This document shows, piece after piece, positions 1,764 through 32,255 of a stretch of 32,563 nt of DNA. The stretch's first letter is position 1. Each line of letters begins with the position of its first letter. Source of the stretch: Stramenopiles sp. TOSAG23-3 (Eukaryota); assembly GCA_900128585.1 (NCBI GenBank), contig LT642215.1:1-32563 (forward strand), written 5' to 3'. The notes under the pieces were generated by a model, which was given only the letters and a program-made list of their open reading frames with translations, ran no database searches and was not told the origin of the DNA. The position numbers were made by a program, and so were the translations under genes.

Positions 1764-1908
1764 NNNNNNNNNNNNNNNNNNNNNNNNNNNNNNNNNNNNN
1801 NNNNNNNNNNNNNNNNNNNNNNNNNNNNNNNNNNNNNNNNNNNNNNNNNNNNNNNNNNNNNNNNNNNNNNNNNNNNNNNNNNNNNNNNNNNNNNNNNNNN
1901 NNNNNNNN
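1764..1908. other. Assembly gap (N run)
   Basis: Run of N seen directly. Confidence 0.99.
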
Positions 1909-6405: not shown

Positions 6406-8619
6406 TTAACTCATTTGCATACCCATGGCTTTCAATTGGTCGATTTCTCTCTTCCTTTGGGCTTCTTGTTGCCTTTCCTGTTCGTTTTGGCGCTCGATTT
6501 GCCTTACGCGTTCGGCATCTTGTTCTTGGAACTTCTCTGCTTCTTCAACCATAGAATCAATTTCCTCTTGGGTCAAACGCCCACGGTCGTTGGTGATAGT
6601 TACGTCAGCGGTAGCACCGGTCACTTGATCCTTGGCCGTAACGTGTAGCAGACCATTGGCATCGATATCGAAGGTAACGTCGACTTGGGGAACGTTCCTC
6701 TTGGCGCGTTCGATACCAGAGATGGTAAACTTTCCGAGCATGTTGTTACCATCGGTGCATTGACGTTCACCTTCATATACACATACGTCAACTTCGGTTT
6801 GGTAGTCTTCCTCGGTGGTGTAGGTCTTCGTCTTGCGGACTGGGATAGGGGTGTTCCTCTTGATCAAGGTCGACATAACCCGGCCGGTGGTCTCGATACC
6901 CAAGGACAACGGGGTAACGTCTACCAGCAAGAGGGAAGAAGTCGCAGCGTGGCGCTCGCCACTGAGGATGGCACCTTGAATGGCGGCACCATAGGCAACG
7001 GCCTCGTCCGGGTTGATGGTCTTGCACAAATCTTTGCCCTTGAAGAATTCTTGCAAAAGGGCTTGGATCTTCGGGATACGGGTGGACCCACCGACAAGAA
7101 CAATATCATCAATGTTTTCTTGCTTCATTTTGGCGTCCTTCAAAACGTGCTTGACGGTCTCCAAGCAGCGTTGGAAAAGTTCGTCGTTCAAACTGTCGAA
7201 CTTGGCGCGGGTAACCGTCGTGGAAAAGTCGATGCCGTCGATAAGAGAATCTATTTCTATTGTCGCGGTGGTACTTGCGGACAATTGACGCTTCGCTTTC
7301 TCGCACGCCTGTCTCAAACGCTTCATGGCGCGGGCGTTCTCGGAGATTGGGGACGCCTTTCTGTTCTTGCGGGTGAAGTCGGACTGAACGTGGTTTTGCA
7401 ATACGTTGTCGAAATCTTCCCCTCCCAAGTGGGTGTCACCGGCGGTGGCTTTGACCTCGAAGATACCTTTCTCGATGGCCAAGATGGAGACATCGAACGT
7501 ACCTCCTCCAAGGTCGAAGACGAGGATGTTGCGGACCCCTTCATCGGCCTTCTTGTCGTTCAAGCCGTAGGCAAGGGCGGCGGCAGTGGGCTCGTTAATG
7601 ATGCGCATGACTTCAAGCCCGGCGATGGCACCGGCGTCCTTGGTGGCGGCGCGCTGGGAGTCGCTGAAGTAGGCGGGTACGGTAATTACAGCCTTCTTCA
7701 CCTCGTGGCCCAAGAAGGTCTCGGCGATGCTCTTCATCTTGGTCAAGACCATGGCACTGACCTGCTCCGGGGCGTACAATTTCTGCTCGCCGTCGTGCTG
7801 AACGCTTACCATTGGTTTTCCTTCCTTGGATCGCTCTACGGCGTACTGGAACATCTTGATGTCCTTGGCAACTTTCTCGTCGTCGAAACCGGACCCGATC
7901 AAACGCTTGACGTCGTAGACGGTGTTCTTTGGGTTCATGGACGCGTTGCGCTGGGCAGCGGCACCAACGAATCGCTCTCCATCGTCTGGGCTGAAGCCGA
8001 TTACGGAGGCAGTGGTTCGGGAACCTTCCTCGTTGGCGATGATCTTAACGCCACCGTCTTTCCACACACCGACGCAGGAGTAGGTGGTACCCAAATCGAT
8101 ACCGATGACCGTGCGGTCCTCCGGTGGGATCTCTTTGTTGGCCTCGGCGATTACCTGAAGCTCGTTCTTGGCTTTGGCAAGACCGTCGACAAGGGCTTGG
8201 TTGTCTGCCTCTACCTTCAAGCCGGCCTCGTAGGCGGAGACGGACTCTTCGAACAGTCGGCCTGCGAACTTGGCAGCGCCAAGGCGCAAGAAGCCTTTGG
8301 CCCATTCTGGCTTCATGGCGATGCACTTTTCGGCATCGAGGGCGGCCTTCTTGTGTTCCTTCAACTTCAGGTACGCGGCGGATCGGTTGGAGTAGTACAC
8401 TTCGTTGGTGGGGTCCAGATCGATGGCGTCGGTGAAGCACGATACAGCTTCGCGGGTTTTGCCGGAGGCGAAGGCGGTGTTACCCATGTTCTTTGCTTCC
8501 ACTGCCATCTTCTTGCGTTCGTTCAAAGACATGTTTGCAAACTCTCCCGCCAAGGCGGGGTCGGAGGCAACTTTTTTCTTTCCTCCCTTCTTCTTTCTCT
8601 TGGTGCGTTTAGGCGGCAT
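6406..8619 (-). CDS. HSP70: Hsp70-family chaperone with an N-terminal Hop/STI1-type TPR domain; lid truncated, no EEVD
   Basis: Hsp70 signatures [56 protein letters not shown] and linker [12 protein letters not shown]. Three TPRs at about aa 40-148 ([22 protein letters not shown]). Confidence 0.95.
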
Positions 8620-14082: not shown

Positions 14083-15019
14083 CGTGTCTTTCATCATTCA
14101 TTTTATTTTGACATTTGTTGATTACGTATTATTCCAATAACCATTATATAGACTATTTAATTAGTTATAAAAGTAGTCGTCGATCGATCAACATATTTTA
14201 AATACGAGGAGTCGTCATCTAAATAAATAAAGAGAGCATTGCTTTTTAAATCCAGTAGAGTGTCCCCATCCTCATCCTCGTATTCTCGTATATATTATAT
14301 GCCCTTCCTTCCCTTCCTCTCTCTCTCCCTTTCCCTCTTCTCCCTTCCCCTCTTCTCTCTTCTCCCTTCCCAGCCTTTGTTTGTTTAACTTATTTTTTTT
14401 ATTTTATGAGGTTGAACCTAATCCAAAACGAATGTTTTTTATTTATTACATACTTTGTAGAAAAAGCTTTTAATACTTTTATTTCAATATTATGTCCATT
14501 TTAAATAAGAGTGGTTGGTTTTAACTTGCTATATTATCTTTGAAGATTTATTGTAACAATATATTATTTTAAACTCAAATTTGATTAAAATAACGAATAA
14601 TTTCGTTTCGAGGATAATTAGAATATATATCACTTATATTTTTATAAATTATTCTACATAATTACCCTAACGTTTAGGTATATATGGACTATTCGTATTA
14701 ATAATATAAATTATGTATTTAACTGTTCTTATAAAAATTACTCTTTGTACAAAATAGCTATGATAAAGTGGTGTGAGATATTTTAAATATTGAACAAAAA
14801 AGAAGAAATCAATCACCAGAAGAATTACAAATGAAACAAAGGGGTTTTATTCAAAGAATGATTATTTGCATGGGGTTGATCGATTGAAGTTGTTTGTTTG
14901 TTTGTTGTTTTCGGTGTCTGAAAAGTACGCCGTTGTTTTTATTGTGTTGTCAGGGATTGGTTGATATTACGAACATATTTACACGCACGCACAGAAAGAG
15001 AGGTCAACCGGTTGTAAGC

Positions 15020-17263
15020 ATGTCGTCCAAACTGGTCGCCCAGAGCGAGGATAACTCTGCAAAGGAGAAGAAACCAGATGTGGACGTTAGAATATCTCGC
15101 ACCGGAACGATTAGTATCAAGGGAATAACGGGGTCGCTGGAGGGGGCAAAGCCGAACGCCAAAAAGAAACATTCCATCCGGTCTGCCGTCGCATCCCTTC
15201 GGGGACAAGCCTTGCGACAGTTACGGCAACAGCAAGGCATAGAGGAGAAGGCGCAAGGCAGCAAAAAGAAGGAGCTGCCTAACTTCAGCTTTGCTTCCCC
15301 AAATCGGCTCTCGCAGTACAGCGTGGGCCAGCCTGAGCCAAGCGATATGGAACGAATCGCAAGGCTGACCGCAAAAGCAACTCTGTCGACCCCACCCTCT
15401 CCTGCGCGAAAAGTGAGGTCTCCCATGTCTCCTTCCCGAACGGAGGGAGGGCAAAAGCTGCGGCACGCCGTCGACGTGCTACATGAAACTGTCCTGGACC
15501 AGCGCGCGAGGGCCGAATCTCGAGGCATTACTTTGTCGATGGCCCTGTATCGATTAGAACACAGGGTGCGTGGGGATGGGGTCGGTGCCCACGCCCTGAC
15601 GAGGGTTCGTGAGGCACTACGAGAGATGGATCAACAGCGAGAAACGCTTTTGCAGCAGCTCGCCGATGAACGGCTGGCAGGTAAGAGCTACCGCACGAAA
15701 ACGAGTGTGAAGAAGCTGATGGTTTCCTGGAGAAACACGCGCACACGAGACGCGTTCAACTTGTGGGAGAACCTAGTCGTTGTGCACAAAGCAAACCAAA
15801 TGCAAAGTATACTGAGCAAGAGCAGGGAATCGCTGATCACGAGGCTCAGGGACCAGTTGCAGGCACACACGTCGCACAGGGTCTTGGTCGCATGGAAATC
15901 CTACGTAAAAACCTCAATAAAAGAGCATGCGTGGGAAGAGAAAATAAGGGAGGACCATCAAAATCACACCGAAATGATAACGCGAAGGGCTATTTTGAGA
16001 TTCAGGCACGGCCAAATATCCCGATGCTTCAATTCATTTGCGACTAACGCCAAAAATGAGAAGGAACGCAGGGTCCGCGTCAAACGAACCCTGGCAAAAT
16101 GGACCAAGCGCACCCTGTACAGGTGCTTTTCGGCTATGTCCGGTTATGCGGCTTCGAGAAAACGGAAACGGAATATCTGCCATAGAGTCATCGCAAAGGT
16201 TGAAAACCAAGCGGCGGCTGCTGCAATGGGAAAATGGCGCAGCTTCATCATGGAGGACGCAAAGATGCGAATGAGCAAAGAAAGGTTGATAATCAAACTC
16301 TTCAATGGTCTAACAAACAAGCATGAAATCCAACAAATATTCACGCTCGTGGTCGCGCAGGTAAAACAGCTGATGGAAGCGGAAAATGCCCTCCTCTTTT
16401 TGCACAATCCCCGCAAAGAAAAGCTCTACACAAAGTTAATGTCCCTTGGCAGTGACGGTGAGGAAATGTTCGAAGAGTTTTTTATCCCGGACGACCTGGG
16501 GCTGACTGGGGAGTGCTTCCAAGAAGGGCAAAATTTCTGTGTCGCCGATGCTTACGAGGATTTGCGGTTTGACAGAAGCATAGACGATCGGTTGAATTCT
16601 CGCACAAAGCAATTGATGGTGCTTCCAGTTCGTACGAAAGCGGGACAGACTCTAGGGGTGCTACGGATTATCAATAAGAAGAATGGCATGGTGTTTAAAA
16701 CGACCGACGCAAACTTGTTGGGCCAATACTGTGACCAGCTAGCAGTTGCAATCCAAAAGGTAGAAAACATCGAGCGCGAAGAAAGGTGGAAAATTGAAAA
16801 GGTCCTGGGGTGGATTCGCAACGGCCTGTTGTCACGATCTTGGACGGCCTGGCGTAATGTATGGGAAGCCGCACGCCTTCGAAAGAAGCAATCAAAGAAA
16901 TGCCTGCTCATATGGACCCGAAAATCAATATCAAAATCGTTCCGATCTTGGTCCAGTTTCGTGGAAAGAAGAAAGAAACAAAGAGATACGGTTTGGAGAT
17001 CACTTCATAGAATGGGGAAAACCCTGCTCAGCAGTGGGTTTAAAACGTGGCACTACAACGCAATGCGAATTAAAGCGTTGGCGGAGACAAACCTGCTGTA
17101 CGACGAACTGAAGCAACAGAAAGAGGCGTACACGGAACAGATCATACACCGTGCCTTGATGCGAATGCAACATGCAACGATCGCAAACTGCTTCTTCACT
17201 ATGGCTGAGCACGCTCGAGAGGCAAAAGAACAAAAGGTTCGGGTTACGCGCACGTTGGCCCGA
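15020..17263 (+). CDS. Large Sfi1-like (W-motif) repeat and GAF domain protein, 5' part; interrupted by an inverted fragment
   Basis: First ATG at 15020. Repeated [AS]F..W...V helices (AFNLWENLV, AMGKWRSFI, SFRSWSSFV, GFKTWHYNA). PDE-type GAF: GLTGECFQEG..VADAYEDLRFDRSID...TKQLMVLPV...LGVLRIINKK..F...D. The TAG at 17264 coincides with the inversion junction. Confidence 0.85.
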
Positions 17264-17427
17264 TAGGATTTGTTGAATATCTTTCTTACCCGCAAGCCCA
17301 TTCGACAGTTTTAAAATAAGTTTTTCTTTCTCGACTCTCATTTTGGATTCTTCCATCATAAAGGAGCGCCATTTCCCCAATGCTGCCGCCACGGCTTGGT
17401 GCTCAACTTTAGCGCATACCCTAACGC
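17261..17427 (-). other. Inverted fragment of the same gene (probable assembly or amplification chimera)
   Basis: The minus strand reads VRVCAKVEHQAVAAALGKWRSFMMEESKMRVEKEKLILKLSNGLAGKKDIQQILS. This is a paralogue of the plus-strand HRVIAKVENQAAAAAMGKWRSFIMEDAKMRMSKERLIIKLFNGLTNKHEIQQIFT (~16180-16345). It abuts the N gap. Confidence 0.85.
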
Positions 17428-17486
17428 NNNNNNNNNNNNNNNNNNNNNNNNNNNNNNNNNNNNNNNNNNNNNNNNNNNNNNNNNNN
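17428..17486. other. Assembly gap (N run)
   Basis: Run of N seen directly. Confidence 0.99.
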
Positions 17487-18482
17487 TGTGGTCGAATATC
17501 TAGGTCACAGTTGAGTGCCGGATTCCACACATGGGAGCGCTTCGCTCTGCATGCACAGCTTGAGCAAGCTAATCATAAAGATAAAATTACCCGAGCCGTA
17601 GGCGTCTGTGGGGGCCTTGCAAAAGTTCAAACGCTAACGGATGTCTTTGCGCTTGTAAATGAAAAAATTCCCTTGTTGCTGGAGACTGAACGGTGCACTT
17701 TATACGTGGCAGATCACGGACGTGAGTTGCTGTGGTCGGCAAACCTGCAGTCTGGAGAGGAAGGTGAAACGACCGTCCAAATACCATTCGCTCGGGGCCA
17801 AATGGGTCTGGTGGCCCAAACAGGCCAAAGCACGTATGGCCCAGGGAGGGATGGTGACAACCACCATTACGTGCCCATCAGAAATGTAAGGGATGATGTT
17901 CTGGGGGTCTTGGACGTGGCATGCGGTTCTTCCCAGAGCGCCGAGGCGAACGAAGAGATGCTGGAATTGGCATCGGCCGTTGCAGCTATGGTTGGCGCGG
18001 CAATTAACCACCAGGGTCTCCTCGACGACATCACGATGATGAACGAGCAAATGCACAGTGCCACATTGACTGAACAGAAAATGGCGTCAATTATTACTTG
18101 GCTTTTTGAAGTTATTGGTAGCGGGGATGGGCAAGAGCACAAAGCAGAGATTCAAGAAATGCGGGATACGTTTATTAGGGCTCATTACGGAATAAACATG
18201 AGCAATTCGCCCCAAGGGGCTGGCAGTCTAAGGGTCGCGAAAGATAGTGGTGTTGCTGCTGAGTTCCGACTGGCTGATATGGACGAGCAATCCATTGAAG
18301 GCTCAGGATACGCCCAAGGACAATCGTCTGAAAGGGCAGAAGATTCTGGCGCGCCAACGTGGACTGAAGCGTTTGCATCCATCGATACAAATAAAGATGG
18401 CAACATATCACCAAGTGAGTTTGCAAGGTGGTACAATGATCGACAGGCAAACCGAAGAAGCGATGGCCCTGCGTATGTGTGA
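17487..18482 (+). CDS. 3' part of the Sfi1-like/GAF protein: divergent GAF and a C-terminal EF-hand
   Basis: AGFHTWERFA W-motif. GAF-like LLETERCTLYVAD..RELLWS...IPFARGQMGLVAQTG...VPIRNVRDDVLGVLDV. Canonical EF loop DTNKDGNISPSE. Joining it to the upstream part is inferred. Confidence 0.8.
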   Translation, partial: CGRISRSQLSAGFHTWERFALHAQLEQANHKDKITRAVGVCGGLAKVQTLTDVFALVNEKIPLLLETERCTLYVADHGRELLWSANLQSGEEGETTVQIPFARGQMGLVAQTGQSTYGPGRDGDNHHYVPIRNVRDDVLGVLDVACGSSQSAEANEEMLELASAVAAMVGAAINHQGLLDDITMMNEQMHSATLTEQKMASIITWLFEVIGSGDGQEHKAEIQEMRDTFIRAHYGINMSNSPQGAGSLRVAKDSGVAAEFRLADMDEQSIEGSGYAQGQSSERAEDSGAPTWTEAFASIDTNKDGNISPSEFARWYNDRQANRRSDGPAYV

Positions 18483-18835: not shown

Positions 18836-19987
18836 TCAAAGCCCAAGCCTCTTTTCACACCGAGCCCGAACAAGGCGAGATCCTTCCAGGTCCATAAGTA
18901 TTCTCCTGCTTGACTGTAAACGATCACTGTATCCACAAAGAGCCAAGGTCTCTCGCTTGTCCCAATCGATTTGAACAGGCTTGCCTTTAAGCGGTACAAG
19001 TAATGGAAACCCAACGTTTGTTTTTGCGCCGCTGCCCATGTTATAGTCCATGCGCTGCCAAAATTTGTCGCATTCACTTTGGTTGACAACATACGTTTCC
19101 GCAGCGACCCCTATCCTATTGAATTTCCCGGTCGCTCCGCTAGTAAAGAGCAAAATGTCGCCAGGGTTGATGTGGGCAAAAATGCGAGAATACAGGCCTT
19201 TTGCAAAGCCCCAAAGATATGTGCCCAGTGACGGGACTTCTTCCTCAAGGGTATGGTCGTTGTAACCCAATACTCCGGTCGGAACCATGAACAGTTGCCG
19301 GTCCCCACCCGTAGCCTTCAGTTTTTTATCGTTTTTCCACCTTGCGACTAATTCCTTGTACGTTTCTTCCTCCCGCTTCTTTGCTTGCGCTTCAAAATTA
19401 ACTTGCAGCTTTCGTCTTGGAGCAGCTTTACCCGATGGGTCTTTTCCTTTCAAACGGCGAGACTGGCGGTACCCAACCCTAGCAGTTCTTGAAACCAATT
19501 GCCTTCGGGGCCGAGAAGAGCCAGACAGCTTCCTCGCTTTGCTCCGCGGGGTGTTGACCATCGTACTCCTCATCGCACCTATGCCCAGACGCTCCAGCTC
19601 TGCTTTGTTTTCTTCGATATTTTTCAGGCGCTCAAGTTCGTACTGCGACAACGTGCTTTCCCCCCCTTCCTTTGTCGTTTTTGTTGCCGGGGCCCTCTGC
19701 TCCTTCTTCCTTACAACTCGCTTCTTTGGGCGTCCTTTGGTCAACAGTGCCCAGTTCCCTTTTTGCCACGAGGCAGGGTTCAAGTTTACTCGAGACTGCG
19801 AGCCATCGTCATCCCAGACAACTGTCCACCAGTACTTCCCTGATGATTTTGAGTCCCTATTAATCAATCTCCCTGTGTACCACTCTTTTTTGTTCCACTT
19901 GTAGGAGAATTTGGAGTCTTGCCTTAACGATGAAATGACAGAGTGAGCCGCATCAACGACCGTCTGTTTGGGGGCTGTTTTCGGCAT
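18836..19987 (-). CDS. Putative chromatin protein: Tudor-like domain, LSxYE..R..NI..N helix, C-terminal EVE/PUA-like domain
   Basis: WYTGRLIN...WWTVVWDDDGS (Tudor-like), LSQYELERLKNIEENKAELERLGI, RQSRRLKG, and YLWGF...INPGDILLF...FNRIGV (EVE/PUA-like). The CDS is secure; domain calls are by eye. Confidence 0.8.
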   Translation of the reverse strand: MPKTAPKQTVVDAAHSVISSLRQDSKFSYKWNKKEWYTGRLINRDSKSSGKYWWTVVWDDDGSQSRVNLNPASWQKGNWALLTKGRPKKRVVRKKEQRAPATKTTKEGGESTLSQYELERLKNIEENKAELERLGIGAMRSTMVNTPRSKARKLSGSSRPRRQLVSRTARVGYRQSRRLKGKDPSGKAAPRRKLQVNFEAQAKKREEETYKELVARWKNDKKLKATGGDRQLFMVPTGVLGYNDHTLEEEVPSLGTYLWGFAKGLYSRIFAHINPGDILLFTSGATGKFNRIGVAAETYVVNQSECDKFWQRMDYNMGSGAKTNVGFPLLVPLKGKPVQIDWDKRETLALCGYSDRLQSSRRILMDLEGSRLVRARCEKRLGL

Positions 19988-20801
19988 GGTGGTGTGCGTT
20001 TTGTTTGTATTTTCGTCTTCCCTTCCGTTCTTTCTTGTTTTTGATGATATGTCTTTTGCTTAATTTCTGTTGAATTTCATGCAAAGATAAAACACTGTCC
20101 GTTTTCTTAATGCATAATTTAATAGAGATAGATTGTTTTATTTTAAATAATAATAGTAAATGAATCCAATTAATCATCTTCACGAAGAAGAAGAACTTGG
20201 TATTCTCTATAATAGTACTACTACTCTAACTAATAATACCTTGGTAATTAAAAAATAATTATAAAAAAAAAAAAATGGAAGAAGAAAAAGAAAAGAAGAA
20301 TTTCTAATAATAATTATTATTAAAAAAAGATAGAAGATTATTTTTTTTATTGTCTTGGTATTTACCTGTTGTAGTATAATAATAATATAAAAAGGACATT
20401 TTTATTTTTTTCTTCTTCATCATCATTTTCTTTTTTTTTGGATTCTTCCGTTGTTCTAGTTGAGTATGTTCGTGGTCCTCCTCCTCCTTATTGAGGAATC
20501 GTATTCAACCTCTTCTCAACCAACGAAAACAAAAGGATACAAACAAAAACTAATAAATATAATAAAAAATATGGTCAATACTCAATACCACCGACCGAAT
20601 GATCGATCGCATTTTTAATGTTCATTAAAAATAATACCTACCTCGTACGGCCTGGTAGATCGTATACGAGTCCTCGTAGATAATAATAATATATTTTAGA
20701 ATAACTTCTGCCTAATTATGCCGTCGAGGAGTCCTCCTCGTAGATGATGGAGTTATTTAGATTGTAATAAGTTAGTGATAAGATTAGGGTTATATATCTC
20801 T

Positions 20802-20866
20802 CCGCCGCGTCTCCCCGTCCCCCGTCCCCGCCCCGCCGCCCGATCGATCTCTCCCCTGCCCCGCCG
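20802..20866. promoter_or_regulatory. GC-rich island (GC boxes, G-quadruplex-capable) in the bidirectional intergenic region
   Basis: CCCCGTCCCCCGTCCCCGCCCC (20813-20834) in otherwise AT-rich DNA, ~250 nt upstream of the 21085 ATG. Function is inferred. Confidence 0.4.
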
Positions 20867-21084
20867 AGAAGAAGAAGAAGGGGAGGAAGAAGAAGATATT
20901 TTAGATAATAGAAGAAGAAAGAAGGATAAGTTGAATTGACTATGCAGTGAGAAGAAGAGGAAGGAATTGTTATGTTCTTACGTTTTAGAACTTCAAGAAA
21001 CGGGAGGTTACCTTAGTACTTTACACTTTACCCGAGTTTTAAAGAAATACAACGTTGTGGTTTTCTTTGTCTCTCACTGAGAAA

Positions 21085-22296
21085 ATGCCTATCGTCTCGT
21101 CGCCCTCTTGCCCAACCCACTACTTGCGGAACGCGGTCATAACGTTCAAATGGAACGACCCTGATGAGTTTTATACTGGAAAGGTCCTGAACCGGTACCA
21201 TAGATCCGGTGCCGATTGGTGGAATATTGTATGGGATGATAAGACGAGCTCTGCCATCTACCTGTCGCTGAAAGGCTACGAAAGGGGCGACTGGAAGTTT
21301 AAGAAGAAAGGAGTTTTGTCCTCCCCCGGCAGCAGCGCAAAGAAATCGTCTGGAAAGCGGAAAGCCGAAAGGGAAAGATCGCCTGGAAAGAAGAAAACGT
21401 CGAAGATCTCGCCTCGTCGCCTTATCGTTTCAGAGAAGGTCCCCGAAGAGGACAACAAACTGAGTGACTATGAAGTGCAGCGCTTGAAGCGCATTGCCGA
21501 GAACAAGGCGAAGATCGAAGAGCTAGGTTTGGGCCAAGCTATGCACTCCATTCATAACGAGGTGGTGAACGAACGAACGAGGGCTTTGAAGGCTCAGAAT
21601 GCGCGTCGGAAGAGAAATCGAGACGCAAATCGGCAAAGGAGTAGAAGTAATCAAATAGAACGTGGTCCAAAGCGAAGGAGTTCAAGGCTGAGTGGCGTTG
21701 CTCCGGTGAAGTACACCGAAGATACCTCCAGAATATCTTACGTGGGCGAAGAGGAAATCTCGGTAATGGAAGCGGGAGAATACCTGAAGCTGATTAATGT
21801 TGTGCCCAAGGTAAAGACTGACGGCCATTACAGTGGCTGGTTAAACCCCGAACTTATCAAGAGTCACGGTTTTGCGCAGACGGCAGAAGAGGCATGGGTA
21901 AGGGGCGGCGGAGGAAAATTTAGCTTTAAATCGCCGGGTGGAAAAAACAAGAAAGGCGGGTTAAATTGCAAAGACTTCGCCTACAAGATGAAGTTCAAAA
22001 ACCCAAACGCGTACTTCTATCGGCACACAGCGCCGGGCGTGCCCCACCGGTTCGATGCTGACTTCCCGTGGACGCAGGAGGAAGAAGAAAAATTTTTGGA
22101 CGTTGCAAAGAAGTACGGCTGCGGGGACAAGTGGGGGCTCTTTTCTTCCTGGCTTCCTGGGCGAGTGGGGTACCAATGCAGTCAGTACTACCGGAAGCAC
22201 ATGATCAAAGAAGGTCTGGTTCAAGACCCGAATTTTGCCTTTTCTACAAGCGGGGACCCGGTCTATGTGGGCAGAAAGGGCTCAAAGCGGGGGTAG
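21085..22296 (+). CDS. Myb/SANT-like domain protein with the same Tudor-like domain and LSxYE helix as its divergent neighbour
   Basis: First ATG at 21085. FYTGKVLN...WWNIVWDDKTS, LSDYEVQRLKRIAENKAKIEELGL, RRSSRLSG, and Myb-like WTQEEEEKFLDVAKKYG...WGLFSSWLPGRVGYQCSQYYR preceded by NPNAYFYR. Confidence 0.88.
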   Translation: MPIVSSPSCPTHYLRNAVITFKWNDPDEFYTGKVLNRYHRSGADWWNIVWDDKTSSAIYLSLKGYERGDWKFKKKGVLSSPGSSAKKSSGKRKAERERSPGKKKTSKISPRRLIVSEKVPEEDNKLSDYEVQRLKRIAENKAKIEELGLGQAMHSIHNEVVNERTRALKAQNARRKRNRDANRQRSRSNQIERGPKRRSSRLSGVAPVKYTEDTSRISYVGEEEISVMEAGEYLKLINVVPKVKTDGHYSGWLNPELIKSHGFAQTAEEAWVRGGGGKFSFKSPGGKNKKGGLNCKDFAYKMKFKNPNAYFYRHTAPGVPHRFDADFPWTQEEEEKFLDVAKKYGCGDKWGLFSSWLPGRVGYQCSQYYRKHMIKEGLVQDPNFAFSTSGDPVYVGRKGSKRG

Positions 22297-24686: not shown

Positions 24687-27458
24687 TTATCTTCTGACTA
24701 CGAACCAGCCAAAACTACGGAGCATCATTTTGGAAAACGAATCTGGAACGATCGGGTCCAAGGCAGCCCAAGCGTCCTCGACAAGCTTGTTCGCTTGCAC
24801 TACGCACTCTTGTACGGCTCCGACATCTTCCAATTCCTTGATGACTTGGTTGACGGTGGCTTGGTCCTGTGGCTTGCTTTCGATGGTTTTCCAAAGCTTT
24901 TGGCGCTGTTGCAAGCCCATGAGGCCCATTGCTTTCGCAACCGGCATAGTGACCTTTCCGCACATGATGTCTTCTCCTAACACTTTCATCGCCTTCTTCT
25001 TTTTCCCTTTTTGTTGCTCCTTAAGCTTCGCTTTTTGATCATCCCGGCCAAAAATTTCGGTAACAACGTTTGCGGTGGCATCCTCCTCGGCGGACTGGTC
25101 GATCTTTGCGTTGAAAAACAACCCACGCAAATTCAACACATCGTCCATGATTTGGAATGCAAGCCCGACGCCTTCAAAGTATTTTCCGACGGCCTCGACC
25201 TGCTCTGGCGTTCCGCCGCCAACTAATGCGCCCATACGGGCGAGGGTTCCCGCTGGAACGGCGGTCTTCAACATGTGGATGGCCAAGGAGCGTTCTTCGA
25301 GGACTGCACTTTCTCCTTTCTCTATCGCTTCCGGCATCAAATAATCGAGGCCGTAAATGTCGAGCGCTTGGCCGGCGTGACCACCTCGCAAGCAAGAGAA
25401 GTAGAGCTGATAAACTTTATTTAAGGTGTCTGCGCTCAATCCTGGCGCTTTAATTAAGTGCTCGCACATGAAGTATGCGGCGGTACCGGCGTTGATGGAA
25501 AGTGGTTCCCCGTAAATGAGGTGGGCACATTTGCCGCCACGGCGTTCTTCGGACTTGTCTTGGATATCATCTACGATCAAAGACCCAACGTGCATGAACT
25601 CAGGCATCGCAAGCCATTTCACGAACTGGCGCGAATCCCCGCCGACGACGTCGCAGCAGGCAAGAGCACCGTAACTGCGCCAGGACTTTCCGCCCCTATC
25701 GGCAATTTCGCGTACTGGGGCGATCAACGTCTTTTGCAGAACGTCCATCGGGACGCCTTTCAGGTAGTAGTCGGTGTCTTTCGTCGCAATCAAATCACGG
25801 GCTTGCTCGCGGGTGGGCATGTCTGGGTACATGTCTTGTACGCTTTGTCGTACTTGCTTTCCAACGTTCTTGAAAAATGCGCCTAAGTCTGGCATCTTGT
25901 CGAAACCGTTGCGCTCCACGTACGCAATCCCAGTGACCTTTTCGCCACGAAAAGTTCCTGTCACAGTGCACCGTCCCTCCCAGTACGATGGCTTTGCGAT
26001 CAGAGTAACAAACTCTTGGTCTGGAAAATCCGCGACGAGCATCAAGTCGGTCTTGTCGCTGGGGATCTTCAAGTTCCACGCAGTCGGGAACGAGCGGAAG
26101 GTTTTTACGGACGTCCAAACGTCGGAGCCTAGCAGCTGCATGTCGGTGCTCTTGTAGCGTCGCCCTTTCGGGTCGATGGTCACCGTTCGCGTTTCCATCA
26201 ACTCGCCGTTCTCTGGGTTGACAAGGATGGCAGCAGTGATCTCGTACTTGTTGTCCAGCTGAACGGCCGCCCAGTTCCAGGCGTAGTTCATTCGGTCCGC
26301 CCCTTCCTCTGGCATCTTTCCGCCAAACTCGTGGTCGTACCAGCCCTGGCCTTTCGTGATGGTTTGCGTTTCCCCGTTCAATTTTACGGTCCCAGTAACT
26401 TCGCACCGTGGGATAAAGTAGTAGAACATATCGTCGCCGTCGTGGCCGGCAACAACACCATCTTTCCCGTGGCGAACCGCTGGTTTCTGGGGAAGGAACG
26501 CCAGAGAGAACCCACTCTCTTCGCCATCGCTGTGAAGGGCGTTGACAATGTACGCGCCGTCGCTGCGCTTGGTGACGGTGGCATTCTCGTAGTCTAGGTT
26601 CAGCTTGCCGAAGGGGACGTTGGCGTCTTTCTTGAACATGCGGTCTGGGAGGGGCACGTTGCCCTTCTCCAAAACTTCGCGCATCGCTGCGCGTAGTTTC
26701 TTGTCCCCGACTTGCTTCTTGCCTTCCTTGATCTGTTTCAAAACCATTTGTGGGGAGTCCCGGTCAAGAAGAATGTCCGAGGTGTATGTCTTGTTCTTGG
26801 TGTCGGAGATGGCCCAGTTCAGGGCGTGCGCGTACGACTTCTTGCCAGTCTTCGGGTCGACATGCTTGCAGATTCGGAAAAATGCGGCAAAAATACTCAA
26901 ATCAACGCCCGTGTCGGTCGTCACGTGACTGTTGTAGTACCACCACTCGGTCACACTGCTCTTGTGAGGGCCGTCGTGTTCGCCCAGGTTGATCGGACCA
27001 ATGGAGCTTGGCCAGTCCGCACGGAGCGCCGGCGTAAGCAGGTTGCGAAGGGGGAACAGCCGTTGGCCATTGGGGCTTCGCAAAACGTCGCACAGGTACG
27101 TCTCCAAATCTTTGGTTCGCTTTTCGATGAACTTGGCGTCCAAGTTTCCGATCCATTTCTTCTGTGGCAAAGACGGGCGGCTGGCGATAAGGTTATCGCG
27201 CTTGATCTCGGCGTGGAGGGCCTCGAACTCCTTGTAACGCCTCCAGACGTTCCAGGTGTTGCCGTCACTCAGTTCGGTAACAACGTTGTACGTCGTGTAC
27301 GAACCGCCTTCGTCGTTGGTGATTTTGCTGCCCAAAACTTTAATCGTGTTGATTTGAACTGCAAGTTCATCGTCGTAGATCGACGGCGAACGAGAGGAAC
27401 GAACAGACTCTTCGTCAGAAGACTCTTGGTTGTTCGAGCGACTTGGTACGGCTTGCAT
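24687..27458 (-). CDS. PX domain, CrtC/AttH-like double lipocalin domain and trans-isoprenyl diphosphate synthase (GGPPS-like) fusion
   Basis: PX: VWRRYKEFEALH, PSLPQKK, FIEKRTKDLETYL. AttH/CrtC: HDGPH...TEWWYY, GWYDHEFG, WNWAAVQLDN, YWEG...G.AYVE. Prenyltransferase: RGGKSWR, FARM IVDDIQDKSEERRG, GQALDI, KT, SARM FQIMDDVLN, GEDIMCGKVT. Confidence 0.93.
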   Translation of the reverse strand: MQAVPSRSNNQESSDEESVRSSRSPSIYDDELAVQINTIKVLGSKITNDEGGSYTTYNVVTELSDGNTWNVWRRYKEFEALHAEIKRDNLIASRPSLPQKKWIGNLDAKFIEKRTKDLETYLCDVLRSPNGQRLFPLRNLLTPALRADWPSSIGPINLGEHDGPHKSSVTEWWYYNSHVTTDTGVDLSIFAAFFRICKHVDPKTGKKSYAHALNWAISDTKNKTYTSDILLDRDSPQMVLKQIKEGKKQVGDKKLRAAMREVLEKGNVPLPDRMFKKDANVPFGKLNLDYENATVTKRSDGAYIVNALHSDGEESGFSLAFLPQKPAVRHGKDGVVAGHDGDDMFYYFIPRCEVTGTVKLNGETQTITKGQGWYDHEFGGKMPEEGADRMNYAWNWAAVQLDNKYEITAAILVNPENGELMETRTVTIDPKGRRYKSTDMQLLGSDVWTSVKTFRSFPTAWNLKIPSDKTDLMLVADFPDQEFVTLIAKPSYWEGRCTVTGTFRGEKVTGIAYVERNGFDKMPDLGAFFKNVGKQVRQSVQDMYPDMPTREQARDLIATKDTDYYLKGVPMDVLQKTLIAPVREIADRGGKSWRSYGALACCDVVGGDSRQFVKWLAMPEFMHVGSLIVDDIQDKSEERRGGKCAHLIYGEPLSINAGTAAYFMCEHLIKAPGLSADTLNKVYQLYFSCLRGGHAGQALDIYGLDYLMPEAIEKGESAVLEERSLAIHMLKTAVPAGTLARMGALVGGGTPEQVEAVGKYFEGVGLAFQIMDDVLNLRGLFFNAKIDQSAEEDATANVVTEIFGRDDQKAKLKEQQKGKKKKAMKVLGEDIMCGKVTMPVAKAMGLMGLQQRQKLWKTIESKPQDQATVNQVIKELEDVGAVQECVVQANKLVEDAWAALDPIVPDSFSKMMLRSFGWFVVRR

Positions 27459-29622: not shown

Positions 29623-30692
29623 CCTTACAATAGCTGAATAAAATTTTGTTTACGTTTAGGGTTTATCGTTTTTGTTGAGAACACAATTTTTTCAATGTTC
29701 ATGCGTACTGCCATGAAATACTTTGTTCGTTAACTTTATAATGTAATTCAGTTCAAAGTTTGTCTGTTTTACTCTTTGTTCTTCTAATTTAAATAAGAAG
29801 TGGAATAGCTCTATGAGAGAAGTCATCTGTTGATGTTGTGTACCTGTTTACGTAGTTATATAATATTTGATAAAATCGTTATACATTTTTTAAAAAAGAA
29901 AAAAGAAAGATATTTTAAGAAAAGTTGAGATGCTATTACTATGTACAGTAATAATAATCTACCTCGTAATGTCCAGTAGTAGAGATATTCGAATACGTGT
30001 CCACCTCTATAACCCTAACTATAACCCCATTATTACATATATTACATAAGCCTACAGAACAGAGAAAGACGACTAATCGTCTTTCTATTTCTTCTCCCTT
30101 CTTGTGGATTCTCCCTTCTTCTTTTCTTCTTCTTCATTTGCTAGACTAGACGACTAATTGCTTCATTTTTATTTGTGACAGGCACTCCTCTTGCTATTTC
30201 ATCATTGTTAGTCTGTTTATATACCATTACAACGTATAATAAAGTGATGAGAGACGACGACAACAAACAGGCGACACCGTTCGAAAGAAAAAGACCGATT
30301 GCCAAATCACACCAGGAGGTAAAAGAAAGCAATAGCTTCAGTAAGAGCAAAGAAGTATACGATTTCTTCTAGTACTACTACGAGGACTAAACTAGTCTAT
30401 AAAATATATAAACAATAAATTATTTTATTTTTTTTTTTTTATTAATAATAATTTTTTTTTTCAATCAACAAAACAATGAATAAAAAATCATCGAATGAAA
30501 CAACAATAAAAAATAAAAGATCAAAATAAAAAGACACAAATGAAAATAAAAGGAGAAGTTACATAAATCAATCGATTAATCTTCATAATTTGTAACCATA
30601 TATTTATTCTTTCTCAAGTGCCAAACGAATCGGCTGAATACCATCGATTGAAATAGTTTTTGTTGGATCAAGTAGACGACCCAAACTCGCTG

Positions 30693-32255
30693 ATGCCAGA
30701 GTTCGAGGGTGTATATATTGAGGGCGACTGCGGCCACGGGCGGTTGCCGCCGCGTGGGAACGTTTTTATCGAAACTTCACTTCACCGAGACTTTTCAGAC
30801 CAAAAATTTTTGCCCAGGTGTAAATGTAGTGATAGAGTAGAACAGGACAACAACGAACAGAAAGGAAAGTCTCCGTCTCTCACCACGGCCCGCGAAGTCG
30901 CAAGTGTGGGACAGAAGCGAAAATCTCCGTCTCTCGCCACAGCCAGCACCATTGCTGAAAGGCCCAGCGCGGTCGCCGGAACATGGGGGGGGTCAGGCAC
31001 ACGGATGCATTGGACCGACGTGGAACTGGACAAGTTGCTAGGAGATGTGAAAAGACACGGGGAAAATTGGGAAGTCATTAGTGAATCTCTTCCTGGTCGA
31101 ACCCCCGAATCTTGCAGGAAGAAGTATATTCGTACCGCGCCAGGGCTTCGAGTGTTTTACGATCAAAGGGTAGCAAGTTCCGATAAGCCTGTTGAAAAGG
31201 TTAAACGGGCCAAAACTACCAAGGTGAAAGACAAAAGAAATGGAAACATGGTGGCCGCCATTTATGTTAGTGATAGTGACGATTTGATGTCCGATATAGA
31301 AGAAATTGATGACCCAGATAGGAAAACACCAGAGCCGAAAATGGAAGAGGATTTCAACGAGGATGAGTGCGCAATTTGTGGTTTGCCCGGGGAGCTTGTG
31401 TGCTGCGAGGGCTGTCCGCGTGCCTTTCACGTGGACTGCCTCGCCGGGGACGACCAGAAGATGAGACAGGATATTGTTGCCGAAGAAGAGTTCTTTTGCG
31501 ACCAGTGCGATATTGTAGACGACTCAAATGAAGATGTCGTCGTCGATCAGTACAAACGTTTGTGGGAGGAAGAGGGGGGGGTCATGCGCCATATCGGCAG
31601 AGCTAGAAAGAGTGAAAATTATTTTCACCCCGATGCGATGGAAGCCATGCAAAATTCGCAAGTAATCACTCGTGAGCATGATACCGACACGGTGAAACCC
31701 TGTGCTTCTGCATGGCGAAAGGTAATCGCAAGCGATGCTGAGTATGAAAAAGCAACGAAGGAAATTGAGGAAGACTTGAAGAGTGGCAGGGGAGCGTATA
31801 CTCTTTGCCAATCATTAGAAGAATGGAAGAACAACACGCTCAGCAAAAAAGAGGCGAGATTTACGAACGACATGGCTGAACGAGAAAAGGCGAAAAAAGA
31901 AGAAAAGAAGAAGAAAATGAGGATCGAACCCCAGCAATTGCCGGGCAGTACAGGAGAGGGGTCGGGTAATATTCCGTCTTCTAATTCTGAGGTACAGACT
32001 GCAACCAACACCAGCAGTGTTTGTCCCGAAACCGTAGCAACGCAGGCAAAGGAGTCTTCCAGAGTTCAAACGCGCTGCTTCGTATGCGGGAAAGGATGTG
32101 CCAATCCCGAGCTCATACCATGGTACGATCACCAGGCGATTTCCCGCTCTATATGTTCAGGCTGCTACGAAATTCTTCGCGGGCTTGAAAGCATTCCTCG
32201 GGTCCCCGTTGAGCGAGGCGGCTGGAAGAGGTCGTCAACGATAAGTCATCTGTGA
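30693..32255 (+). CDS. SANT/Myb and PHD finger chromatin protein with a C-terminal CxxC...CxxC motif
   Basis: First ATG at 30693. [10 protein letters not shown]...[27 protein letters not shown] (C4HC3) [29 protein letters not shown]...FFCDQC. CFVC...CSGC near the C-terminus. Confidence 0.9.

Follow-up and report, generated by a model that had tools for sequence, protein, structure and literature searches.

The window analysed here is a stretch of 32,563 nucleotides from Stramenopiles sp. TOSAG23-3 (contig LT642215.1 of the GenBank assembly GCA_900128585.1, positions 1 to 32,563 of the forward strand), and the question raised by one of its genes is what the C-terminal domain of the encoded protein, 383 amino acids long, recognizes. 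The sequence-only reading had proposed a PUA-like domain of the EVE type, derived from a prokaryotic restriction system and recruited to chromatin, without its nuclease, as a reader of 5-methylcytosine (5mC), 5-hydroxymethylcytosine (5hmC) or N6-methyladenine (6mA) in place of the zinc finger of CDCA7. Animals and plants have several well-studied readers of DNA methylation (MBD, SRA, the CDCA7 zinc finger); to our knowledge, hardly any are known in marine protists with unusual methylation systems. On the evidence given below, we lean towards a nuclear, chromatin-associated protein whose C-terminal EVE-like domain reads a modified base, most likely in DNA. If binding to a modified base proves true, the protein would define a new reader family with a tractable domain of ~155 residues, and a restriction-type sensor fold would be at work in eukaryotic chromatin without a nuclease.

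The gene and its C-terminal domain

The gene and the domain under study lie at these positions.

Positions 18836..19987, minus strand: whole gene, an intron-less open reading frame (ORF) of 383 amino acids; the minus-strand translation is one open frame, with the stop codon at 18836-18838
Positions 18839..19303, minus strand: EVE/YTH-like PUA-fold domain, residues 229-383, defined from the AlphaFold2 (AF2) model, Foldseek, hhalign and conservation

The gene has a GC content of 0.50, against 0.33 in the flanking AT-rich spacer sequence, and the window to which it belongs, compact and essentially devoid of introns, is nuclear DNA of a eukaryote. With a net charge of +36, the protein is strongly basic; an identical 383-residue protein is present in public protein sets, so that a spurious gene model due to ORF calling is excluded. 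Regarding its domain content, Pfam and NCBIfam scans found no nuclease or ATPase domain in the protein, in line with the proposed loss of the nuclease, and Pfam found neither of them in the neighboring genes; a zf-4CXXC_R1 zinc finger was likewise absent from the protein in the Pfam scan. For the C-terminal domain itself, Pfam and NCBIfam returned zero families. Residues 229-383 read LFMVPTGVLGYNDHTLEEEVPSLGTYLWGFAKGLYSRIFAHINPGDILLF...KFNRIGV...CDKFW...GFPLLVPL...CGYSDRLQSSRR, and the motifs quoted in the sequence-only reading are all there, including the core made of W-G and G-D-hydrophobic-F, found as W259-G260-F261 and G276-D277-I-L-L-F281.

Predicted fold

The AF2 model of residues 224-383, built from a 22-sequence alignment, had a predicted local distance difference test (pLDDT) of 93.5 and a predicted template modelling score (pTM) of 0.88. 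Foldseek returned 31 matches in the PDB at E<=1e-3; among the matches listed, all were EVE, YTH or McrB N-terminal (McrB-N) domains, and none was an SRA structure. The top match was the McrB N-domain of Thermococcus gammatolerans (6p0f/6p0g), with E 1.2e-6 and a template modelling (TM) score of 0.60/0.55. The EVE protein MJECL36 (2p5d) was matched with E 4.1e-5, TM 0.60/0.65 and a root-mean-square deviation of 3.8, 1wmm/2hd9 with E 3-5e-4, and VcaM4I (6yex), an enzyme that combines EVE and HNH domains, with E 1.1e-3; PH1033 was among the leading matches. YTH domains gave many matches, with E from 2e-4 to 1.6e-3 and TM of about 0.46-0.55. A lower-quality AF2 model of the whole protein placed the same families at the top of the Foldseek list.

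As for the ESM Atlas, its own model of the domain had TM 0.71-0.74 to clusters annotated as EVE, HNH endonuclease, Mrr_cat, SRA_ScoMcrA and McrB-type AAA_5; these neighbor clusters are mostly bacterial or archaeal, and the SRA_ScoMcrA label belongs to one cluster, within which the aligned domain is not specified. The likeness to prokaryotic restriction sensors, suggested in the sequence-only reading, extends to the predicted structure, where the neighbors include sensor domains of the HNH, Mrr and McrB types. In the viral library, the best match was an unnamed protein (E 5.9e-7, TM 0.62/0.70); four matches had E<=1e-3, three of them unnamed and one uncharacterised, and EVE- and ASCH-annotated proteins came next at E 0.009-0.014. 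These models, together with the hhalign comparison given below, support a PUA-superfamily fold of the EVE/YTH branch for the C-terminal domain, which is the class of fold that had been claimed.

Conservation and distribution of the domain

A word-indexed search with the 383-residue protein gave five relatives with 37-59% identity; the relatives come from marine surveys. An exhaustive profile search with the whole-protein alignment found 466 proteins at E<=1e-3, 46 of which had E<=1e-10 and 25 E<=1e-30. The matches split in two: those that share the C-terminal domain, and a much bigger set that matches a central motif only. A domain-only profile run over 229 proteins gave 95 domain matches, of which 65 span at least 110 positions and yield 29 unique sequences. 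Conservation was evaluated over these 29, and the denominators below are the rows that have a residue at the column in question.

The conserved set includes N243 (27/27), D244, L247 (28/28), W259 (28/28), G260, F261 (28/28), G276 (28/29), D277 (29/29), F289 (28/29), W310 (28/28), F327 (28/29), P328, K344 (27/29), G352 (27/29), Y353 (25/29), D355 and R361, with D244, D355 and R361 highly conserved. Two Trp, three Phe and one Tyr, along with N243, D277 and K344, are nearly invariant despite an overall identity of 25-55%, a degree of conservation far beyond chance; when the AF2 model and the alignment are combined, predicted loops hold many of the conserved residues.

As for the other parts of the relatives, P0126 (1200 residues) has two copies of the EVE-like domain, at residues 4-146 and 297-443, and P0071 joins the domain to a PHD finger (E 3.5e-7). 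P0099 (488 residues) has the EVE-like domain at the C-terminus and a sub-threshold HNH motif at its extreme N-terminus (E 0.0043; 17.6 bits, with the cut-off at 21.4), and this remnant is the sole link to a nuclease seen in the family. All the inspected carriers of the domain have low-complexity linkers of eukaryotic style. Two further candidates were not retained: the C-terminus of P0126 looked SET-like by eye, and it was rejected, with zero Pfam families at E<=1; the tail of P0090/P0091 was considered chromo-like, and it is unproven, with a PDB profile match at only E 0.58 and no Pfam support.

The domain was then traced in databases. PF01878, or any other Pfam family, was not matched over the domain in any of the 22 family members scanned at E<=10. 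PDB sequence searches with two family profiles found nothing over the domain; they returned AlgK at E 0.81 and others at E 0.58 or worse, with the coiled-coil and chromodomain matches falling on the tails of other family members.

Regarding prokaryotic relatives, a family-profile search of prokaryotic genomes gave 28 pattern matches, none of which was confirmed; tblastn found one match among plasmids (E 1, an AMP-binding protein) and two among phages (E 2-6), all rejected as chance; and the domain-only profile in a word-indexed search retrieved three proteins, every one a family member. Of the 466 profile matches, the best 150 were inspected and most of them cover the region of the central motif only, so that a weak prokaryotic domain match could lie among the others. 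The claim of a prokaryote-type, restriction-system-derived ancestry finds no backing in these searches, where no prokaryotic sequence relative was found and the inspected relatives look eukaryotic by composition. The general idea that eukaryotes took PUA-like readers of modified bases from prokaryotic restriction systems is already in print, as excerpts of PMC4738411 and PMC7641849 indicate; no description of this family or of its architecture was found in the open-access literature searched. The domain represents a so far uncatalogued family (no Pfam or NCBIfam entry) and probably a new reader of modified DNA.

Probable homology to EVE and the candidate base pocket

To compare the family with EVE, a short EVE motif, MK-x-GD-x3-FYHS, was used as bait in prokaryotic genomes; it gave 120 loci, with 108 of the 120 ORFs coding for 120-200 residues. 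All 42 ORFs tested, bacterial or archaeal, were assigned to PF01878 (E 1e-40 to 1e-62) and served as positive control. When aligned by hhalign to these 42, the domain-only alignment had a probability of 52.9% and E 1.4e-4; with the 29 domain sequences against the 108 EVE-type ORFs, the local mode aligned 72 columns and reached 71.2%, with E 3.6e-5. The relaxed mode covered 126 columns, the global mode had a probability of 30.6%, and controls with reversed profiles stayed at 0.1% and 0.2%. At the level of profiles, the signal to canonical EVE is real, yet it stays below what is usually taken as proof.

The pairing is colinear along the domain: LFLVPTG with YWLxKSEP, WGF with WdGV, PGD-ILLFTS with GD-xxFFYHS, FNRIGV with IVGIaEV, FW with RW, and then a C-terminal R-containing strand. 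The motifs W-D-G-V-R-N and G-D-x3-F-Y-H-S are invariant in the alignment of 42 EVE sequences; W259-G260-F261 and G276-D277-x3-F281-T282-S283 align to them, with W, G, G-D and F kept, and R-N and Y-H lost. Since the match is colinear and the reversed controls remain at 0.1-0.2%, the family is, judging from profile comparison, most probably an EVE-like domain that has diverged widely. The archaeal UPF0310 proteins appear to be about as far from canonical EVE, because the EVE profile finds these only weakly (E 4.7e-5 and 0.0027).

As for the base pocket, an excerpt of PMC7897488 states that VcaM4I flips 5mC or 5hmC into a hydrophobic pocket made of P24, W82 and Y130, and that W26 and Y82 are the residues stressed in the Pseudomonas EVE structure 2eve. 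Counting from the alignment of 2eve to the EVE profile, W26 is the Trp of WDGV, and the invariant W259 falls within one hhalign column of its equivalent. For the second aromatic residue, our guess is that the invariant W310, located in the equivalent loop, would be the counterpart of Y82 in 2eve and W82 in VcaM4I. By analogy with these proteins, the domain may contain an aromatic pocket.

The N-terminal half and its candidate adaptor motif

Before the EVE-like domain, the protein contains the following elements.

Positions 19748..19930, minus strand: small β-strand module, residues ~20-80, four strands plus a helix in AF2 model 1; kept in the neighboring paralogue
Positions 19577..19654, minus strand: conserved helix motif, residues 112-137, L-S-x-Y-E-x-x-R-L-x-x-I-x-E-N-x-x-x-L-x-x-L-G
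Positions 19418..19576, minus strand: basic disordered linker, residues 138-190, with 16 Lys and Arg and one Asp or Glu; pLDDT<50
Positions 19445..19468, minus strand: R174-x-S176-x-R178-L-x-G181 motif inside the basic linker, with R174, S176 and R178 invariant
Positions 19334..19417, minus strand: predicted long helix, residues 191-218, rich in Lys, Arg and Glu, just before the EVE-like domain (AF2 model 1)

The β-strand module is tentatively of the Tudor/SH3-like type: Foldseek paired its model, which has pLDDT 66-79 in this part, with Spindlin, SAWADEE and the TDRD3 Tudor domain with probabilities of 0.9-0.99 and E 0.1-0.2, and the N-terminal 140 residues had TM below 0.5 against the Atlas. 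Pfam found no Tudor, Agenet or chromo match in the window protein, and weak Tudor_3 and chromo-like matches in one relative each.

In the helix motif, E117, R120, L121, I124, N127 and L134 are invariant, and AF2 model 1 has a helix at residues 115-133. The linkers carry a charge of +8 (residues 81-111) and +15 (residues 138-190), and a DUF5759 match at residues 199-242 is weak and sub-threshold. Taken together, the helix and the R-x-S-x-R-L-x-G sequence ~40 residues further on form a bipartite motif (19445..19654, minus strand) that is common to hundreds of proteins; its second part was also read by eye in relatives that have other C-terminal modules.

Ninety-six relatives that share only the motif were scanned with Pfam at E<=1e-4: 35 had domains and 61 did not, and in none of the 96 did a Pfam family cover the motif region itself. 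The partners were WD40-type repeats (14), HRDC (7), Myb (4), zf-4CXXC_R1 (2) and HA (2), with PHD, Agenet/Tudor, linker histone, FYRC, AMOP and the combination of Tudor with SAD/SRA found once each. In this last protein, P0102, a Tudor domain is followed by the same helix motif (BLASTP E 1e-6) and by SAD/SRA (E 4.7e-29); because its three-part layout matches that of the window protein, SRA, a known 5mC reader, holds there the position of the EVE-like domain.

The sequence-only reading had placed the domain where CDCA7 has its zinc finger. One part of this claim stands, for the helix motif is N-terminal to the finger in the two zf-4CXXC_R1 proteins, P0155 and P0192; the other does not, as these are only two of the 96 and the motif is commoner with WD40, HRDC and Myb, whereas with SAD/SRA it occurs once. 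The helix together with R-x-S-x-R-L-x-G is a general module and not specifically a CDCA7 backbone, and from its distribution it is a candidate adaptor.

The paralogue with a Myb domain

The gene faces a paralogue across an AT-rich spacer.

Positions 21085..22296, plus strand: divergently transcribed paralogue of 403 amino acids, counted from the ATG at 21085 (BLASTP, Pfam)
Positions 19988..21084, no strand assigned: AT-rich spacer of 1097 bp with GC 0.33, between the two head-to-head paralogues

The spacer presumably holds the promoters of both genes. The paralogy is detected by BLASTP, which aligns residues 7-184 of the window protein to residues 10-217 of its neighbor with 33% identity (E 8e-19). 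The neighbor shares the N-terminal β-strand module, the helix motif and R-x-S-x-R-L-x-G, and a C-terminal Myb domain (PF00249, E 1.3e-9) replaces the EVE-like domain. It is identical at 402 of 403 residues to the motif-only relative P0109; its ORF as listed begins at a TTG at 21055, and the ATG at 21085 yields the recorded form of 403 residues.

Because the paralogue keeps the N-terminal half but ends in Myb, the backbone is, from the comparison of these sequences, a module carrier, with the C-terminal DNA-directed module as its variable part. A backbone of this kind could serve for recruitment more generally, its N-terminal half being joined to EVE-like, Myb, SRA, CDCA7-type, WD40, HRDC or PHD modules, and two of its forms, EVE-like and Myb, adjoin each other in the window.

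Comparison with known systems

The EVE proteins (PF01878; PSPTO5229/2eve, THYN1, VcaM4I) share with the window family the PUA-like barrel; in the profile comparison the core is colinear, with PGD-hhhF-x-S paired to GD-xxFFYHS, a strand of the type hh-G-h-x-x-V, and a W in the next loop. W26, a pocket residue published for 2eve, has an invariant Trp as its equivalent in the family. The differences are the change of YHS into TS(G), that of the YWLxKSEP strand into LFLVPTG..G.NDHTL, and the presence in the window family of an additional invariant F327-P328 and of a G352-Y353-x-D355 loop. In VcaM4I the EVE domain is fused to HNH, whereas in the window family the domain is fused to eukaryotic chromatin modules.

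McrB-N (6p0f/6p0g) and the UPF0310 proteins MJECL36 and PH1033 are the best structural matches, with identity of only 16-19% and no link by sequence searches; McrB-N differs in being joined to an AAA+ GTPase motor in a restriction complex. The specificity of McrB-N does not seem simply transferable to the window protein, because an excerpt of PMC7897488 calls it a 6mA-sensing YTH domain, and 6p0g is, by its PDB title, a complex with m5C DNA.

YTH domains (YTHDF1-3, YTHDC1, Mmi1, Pho92/MRB1) have the same fold class, with TM and identity (8-15%) below those of McrB-N and UPF0310; no Pfam YTH match occurs in the 22 family members, and the architecture of the window protein is of the chromatin type and not that of RNA processing. 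Binding of N6mA DNA is also attributed to YTHDC1 and YTHDC2 (excerpt of PMC7544203; PDB title of 9szp).

SAD/SRA, as in P0102 and in proteins of the UHRF1 type, is a base-flipping 5mC reader that occupies the EVE-like position of the same three-part layout in P0102; however, the SRA of P0102 and the EVE-like domain have no sequence similarity detectable by BLASTP, and Pfam finds no SRA match. According to an excerpt of PMC4738411, SRA and EVE both belong to the PUA-like superfamily.

With CDCA7 the likeness would be in the logic, an adaptor helix plus a sensor of methylated DNA; that the motif corresponds to the HELLS-binding helix may be suggested from its position only, and the window protein differs in lacking the zinc finger. 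CDCA7 is described, in an excerpt of PMC11343034, as a sensor of hemimethylated CpG through its zinc finger, with a conserved N-terminal helix that binds HELLS. Mamiellophyceae retain DNMT5, CDCA7 and HELLS without DNMT1, as an excerpt of PMC10538959 reports; the window is not assigned to that group. Finally, the type IV modification-dependent restriction enzymes combine a sensor with a nuclease or with a McrBC-type motor, whereas the window protein and its neighbors have neither.

Proposed function and competing explanations

The protein would be made of four parts, namely the N-terminal β-strand module, the adaptor formed by the helix and the basic R-x-S-x-R-L-x-G, strongly basic linkers, and the C-terminal domain of the EVE/YTH branch. 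By analogy with EVE, YTH and McrB-N, we infer that the C-terminal domain flips a modified base out of the nucleic acid and holds it in a pocket, whose lining could include W259, F261, W310, F327, Y353, N243 and D277. The target would most likely be DNA; as for the modification, 5mC or 5hmC would be our guess, with 6mA second. Modified chromatin would thereby become the anchoring site for the rest of the protein and for any partner of the adaptor helix, and the helix/basic module and the N-terminal β-strand module would provide the link to other chromatin factors. A chromatin context, already expected in the sequence-only reading, is supported by the charge of +36 and by the chromatin-type modules met in the family and its surroundings, that is PHD in P0071, SRA in P0102 and Myb in the paralogue.

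Several points weigh against this proposal. The probabilities from hhalign are moderate (local mode, 53-71%; global mode, 31%), and neither Pfam and NCBIfam nor the PDB sequence searches match the domain. The position of the Tyr in the EVE motif FYHS is occupied by Thr282 in the window protein; Y82 of 2eve and W82 of VcaM4I sit in a loop insertion that hhalign leaves unaligned; and the assignment of the N-terminal module is weak.

Furthermore, YTH domains in complex with RNA carrying N6-methyladenosine (m6A) make up most of the PDB matches at E<=1e-3, so that the fold alone does not favor DNA. An alternative is therefore that the domain reads modified RNA (m6A or m5C), like YTH and DCD, and acts on nascent or chromatin-associated transcripts; along the same line, according to an excerpt of PMC7641849, the EVE-like domains of eukaryotes belong mostly to proteins of RNA processing, in algae and other protists. 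YTH structures, however, are heavily over-represented in the PDB, and the two best matches are the DNA-binding McrB N-domain and an archaeal EVE protein. KH, RRM and CCCH domains are absent from all family members scanned, and the partners are a PHD finger, the Myb domain of the paralogue and the SRA domain of the analogous protein, with a motif common to CDCA7-type, HRDC, H1 and WD40 proteins; on balance, we regard an RNA reader as unlikely.

The loss of the FYHS Tyr, the lack of sequence-level membership of EVE, YTH or SRA, and a rest of the protein basic enough (+36) to bind DNA alone would also suit a PUA-like fold that acts as a general scaffold for binding nucleic acids or proteins, with no specificity for a modified base. 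This explanation has an equally low probability in our view, as the near-invariant aromatic and polar residues, many of them in loops, have the pattern expected of a specific ligand site, and all the named close structural neighbors are sensors of modified bases.

Some ASCH proteins are enzymes, and the domain might itself be one that acts on a modified base or nucleoside, with a catalytic site formed by the invariant N243, D277 and K344 and the highly conserved D244, D355 and R361; ASCH clusters and ASCH-annotated viral proteins do occur among the weaker structural neighbors, yet they rank below EVE, McrB-N and YTH (Atlas TM 0.63 by query; viral E 0.014) and no ASCH entry is present among the PDB matches listed, which makes an enzyme very improbable. 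It is hardly credible either that a modification-dependent restriction enzyme, or a mobile element, has decayed and left this gene behind with no role in chromatin: the structural neighbors are indeed the sensors of restriction proteins of the HNH, Mrr and McrB types, and P0099 retains its sub-threshold HNH motif, but the domain is strongly conserved over many divergent relatives and fused to conserved eukaryotic modules, its paralogous neighbor is conserved, and neither a nuclease domain in the protein nor, in the searches described above, a prokaryotic sequence relative was found.

Within the preferred proposal of a reader of modified DNA, a more speculative extension concerns the helix and R-x-S-x-R-L-x-G, which could be a portable docking element with swappable sensors (zf-4CXXC_R1, SAD/SRA, Myb, EVE-like). 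Among sensors of methylated DNA, the window protein would then form a third kind, independent of the others, and bring a remodeller of the HELLS/DDM1 type or a methyltransferase of the DNMT5 type to modified DNA; it would be an analogue of CDCA7 built on a restriction-type reader fold, and the Myb paralogue would bring the same partner to sequence-defined sites. The adaptor idea is plausible because the motif precedes the finger in two zf-4CXXC_R1 proteins and CDCA7 binds HELLS through an N-terminal helix; the extension as a whole is doubtful.

Other features of the window

The Pfam scan of the remaining ORFs in the window found WW/IQ, TPR-Hsp70, GT4 glycosyltransferase, GAF/EF-hand, Myb, PX-lipocalin-polyprenyl synthetase and Myb-PHD proteins. 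Three of these ORFs deserve mention.

Positions 6406..8619, minus strand: ORF of 737 amino acids with N-terminal TPR repeats (residues ~26-110) and a complete Hsp70 (E 1.3e-221), an unusual layout
Positions 24687..27458, minus strand: ORF of 923 amino acids with PX, two CrtC/lipocalin-like domains and a polyprenyl synthetase domain in a single protein
Positions 30660..32255, plus strand: ORF of 531 amino acids with a Myb domain and then a PHD finger

The Myb-PHD gene and the two paralogues amount to three chromatin-type genes inside 14 kb.

Regarding the assembly, two gaps are present as N runs, one at 1764..1908 (145 bases) and the other at 17428-17486. Beside the latter, positions 17270-17425 encode on the minus strand 52 amino acids that match residues 431-481 of the GAF protein on the plus strand with 69% identity (E 2e-22); a segment of this kind would be expected ahead of the second GAF domain, but in the opposite orientation. 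The ORFs at 14894..17266 and 17343..18482 are probably one gene, which a short inverted segment interrupts where the scaffold has its gap; 17270..17486 may alternatively be a genuine local inversion.

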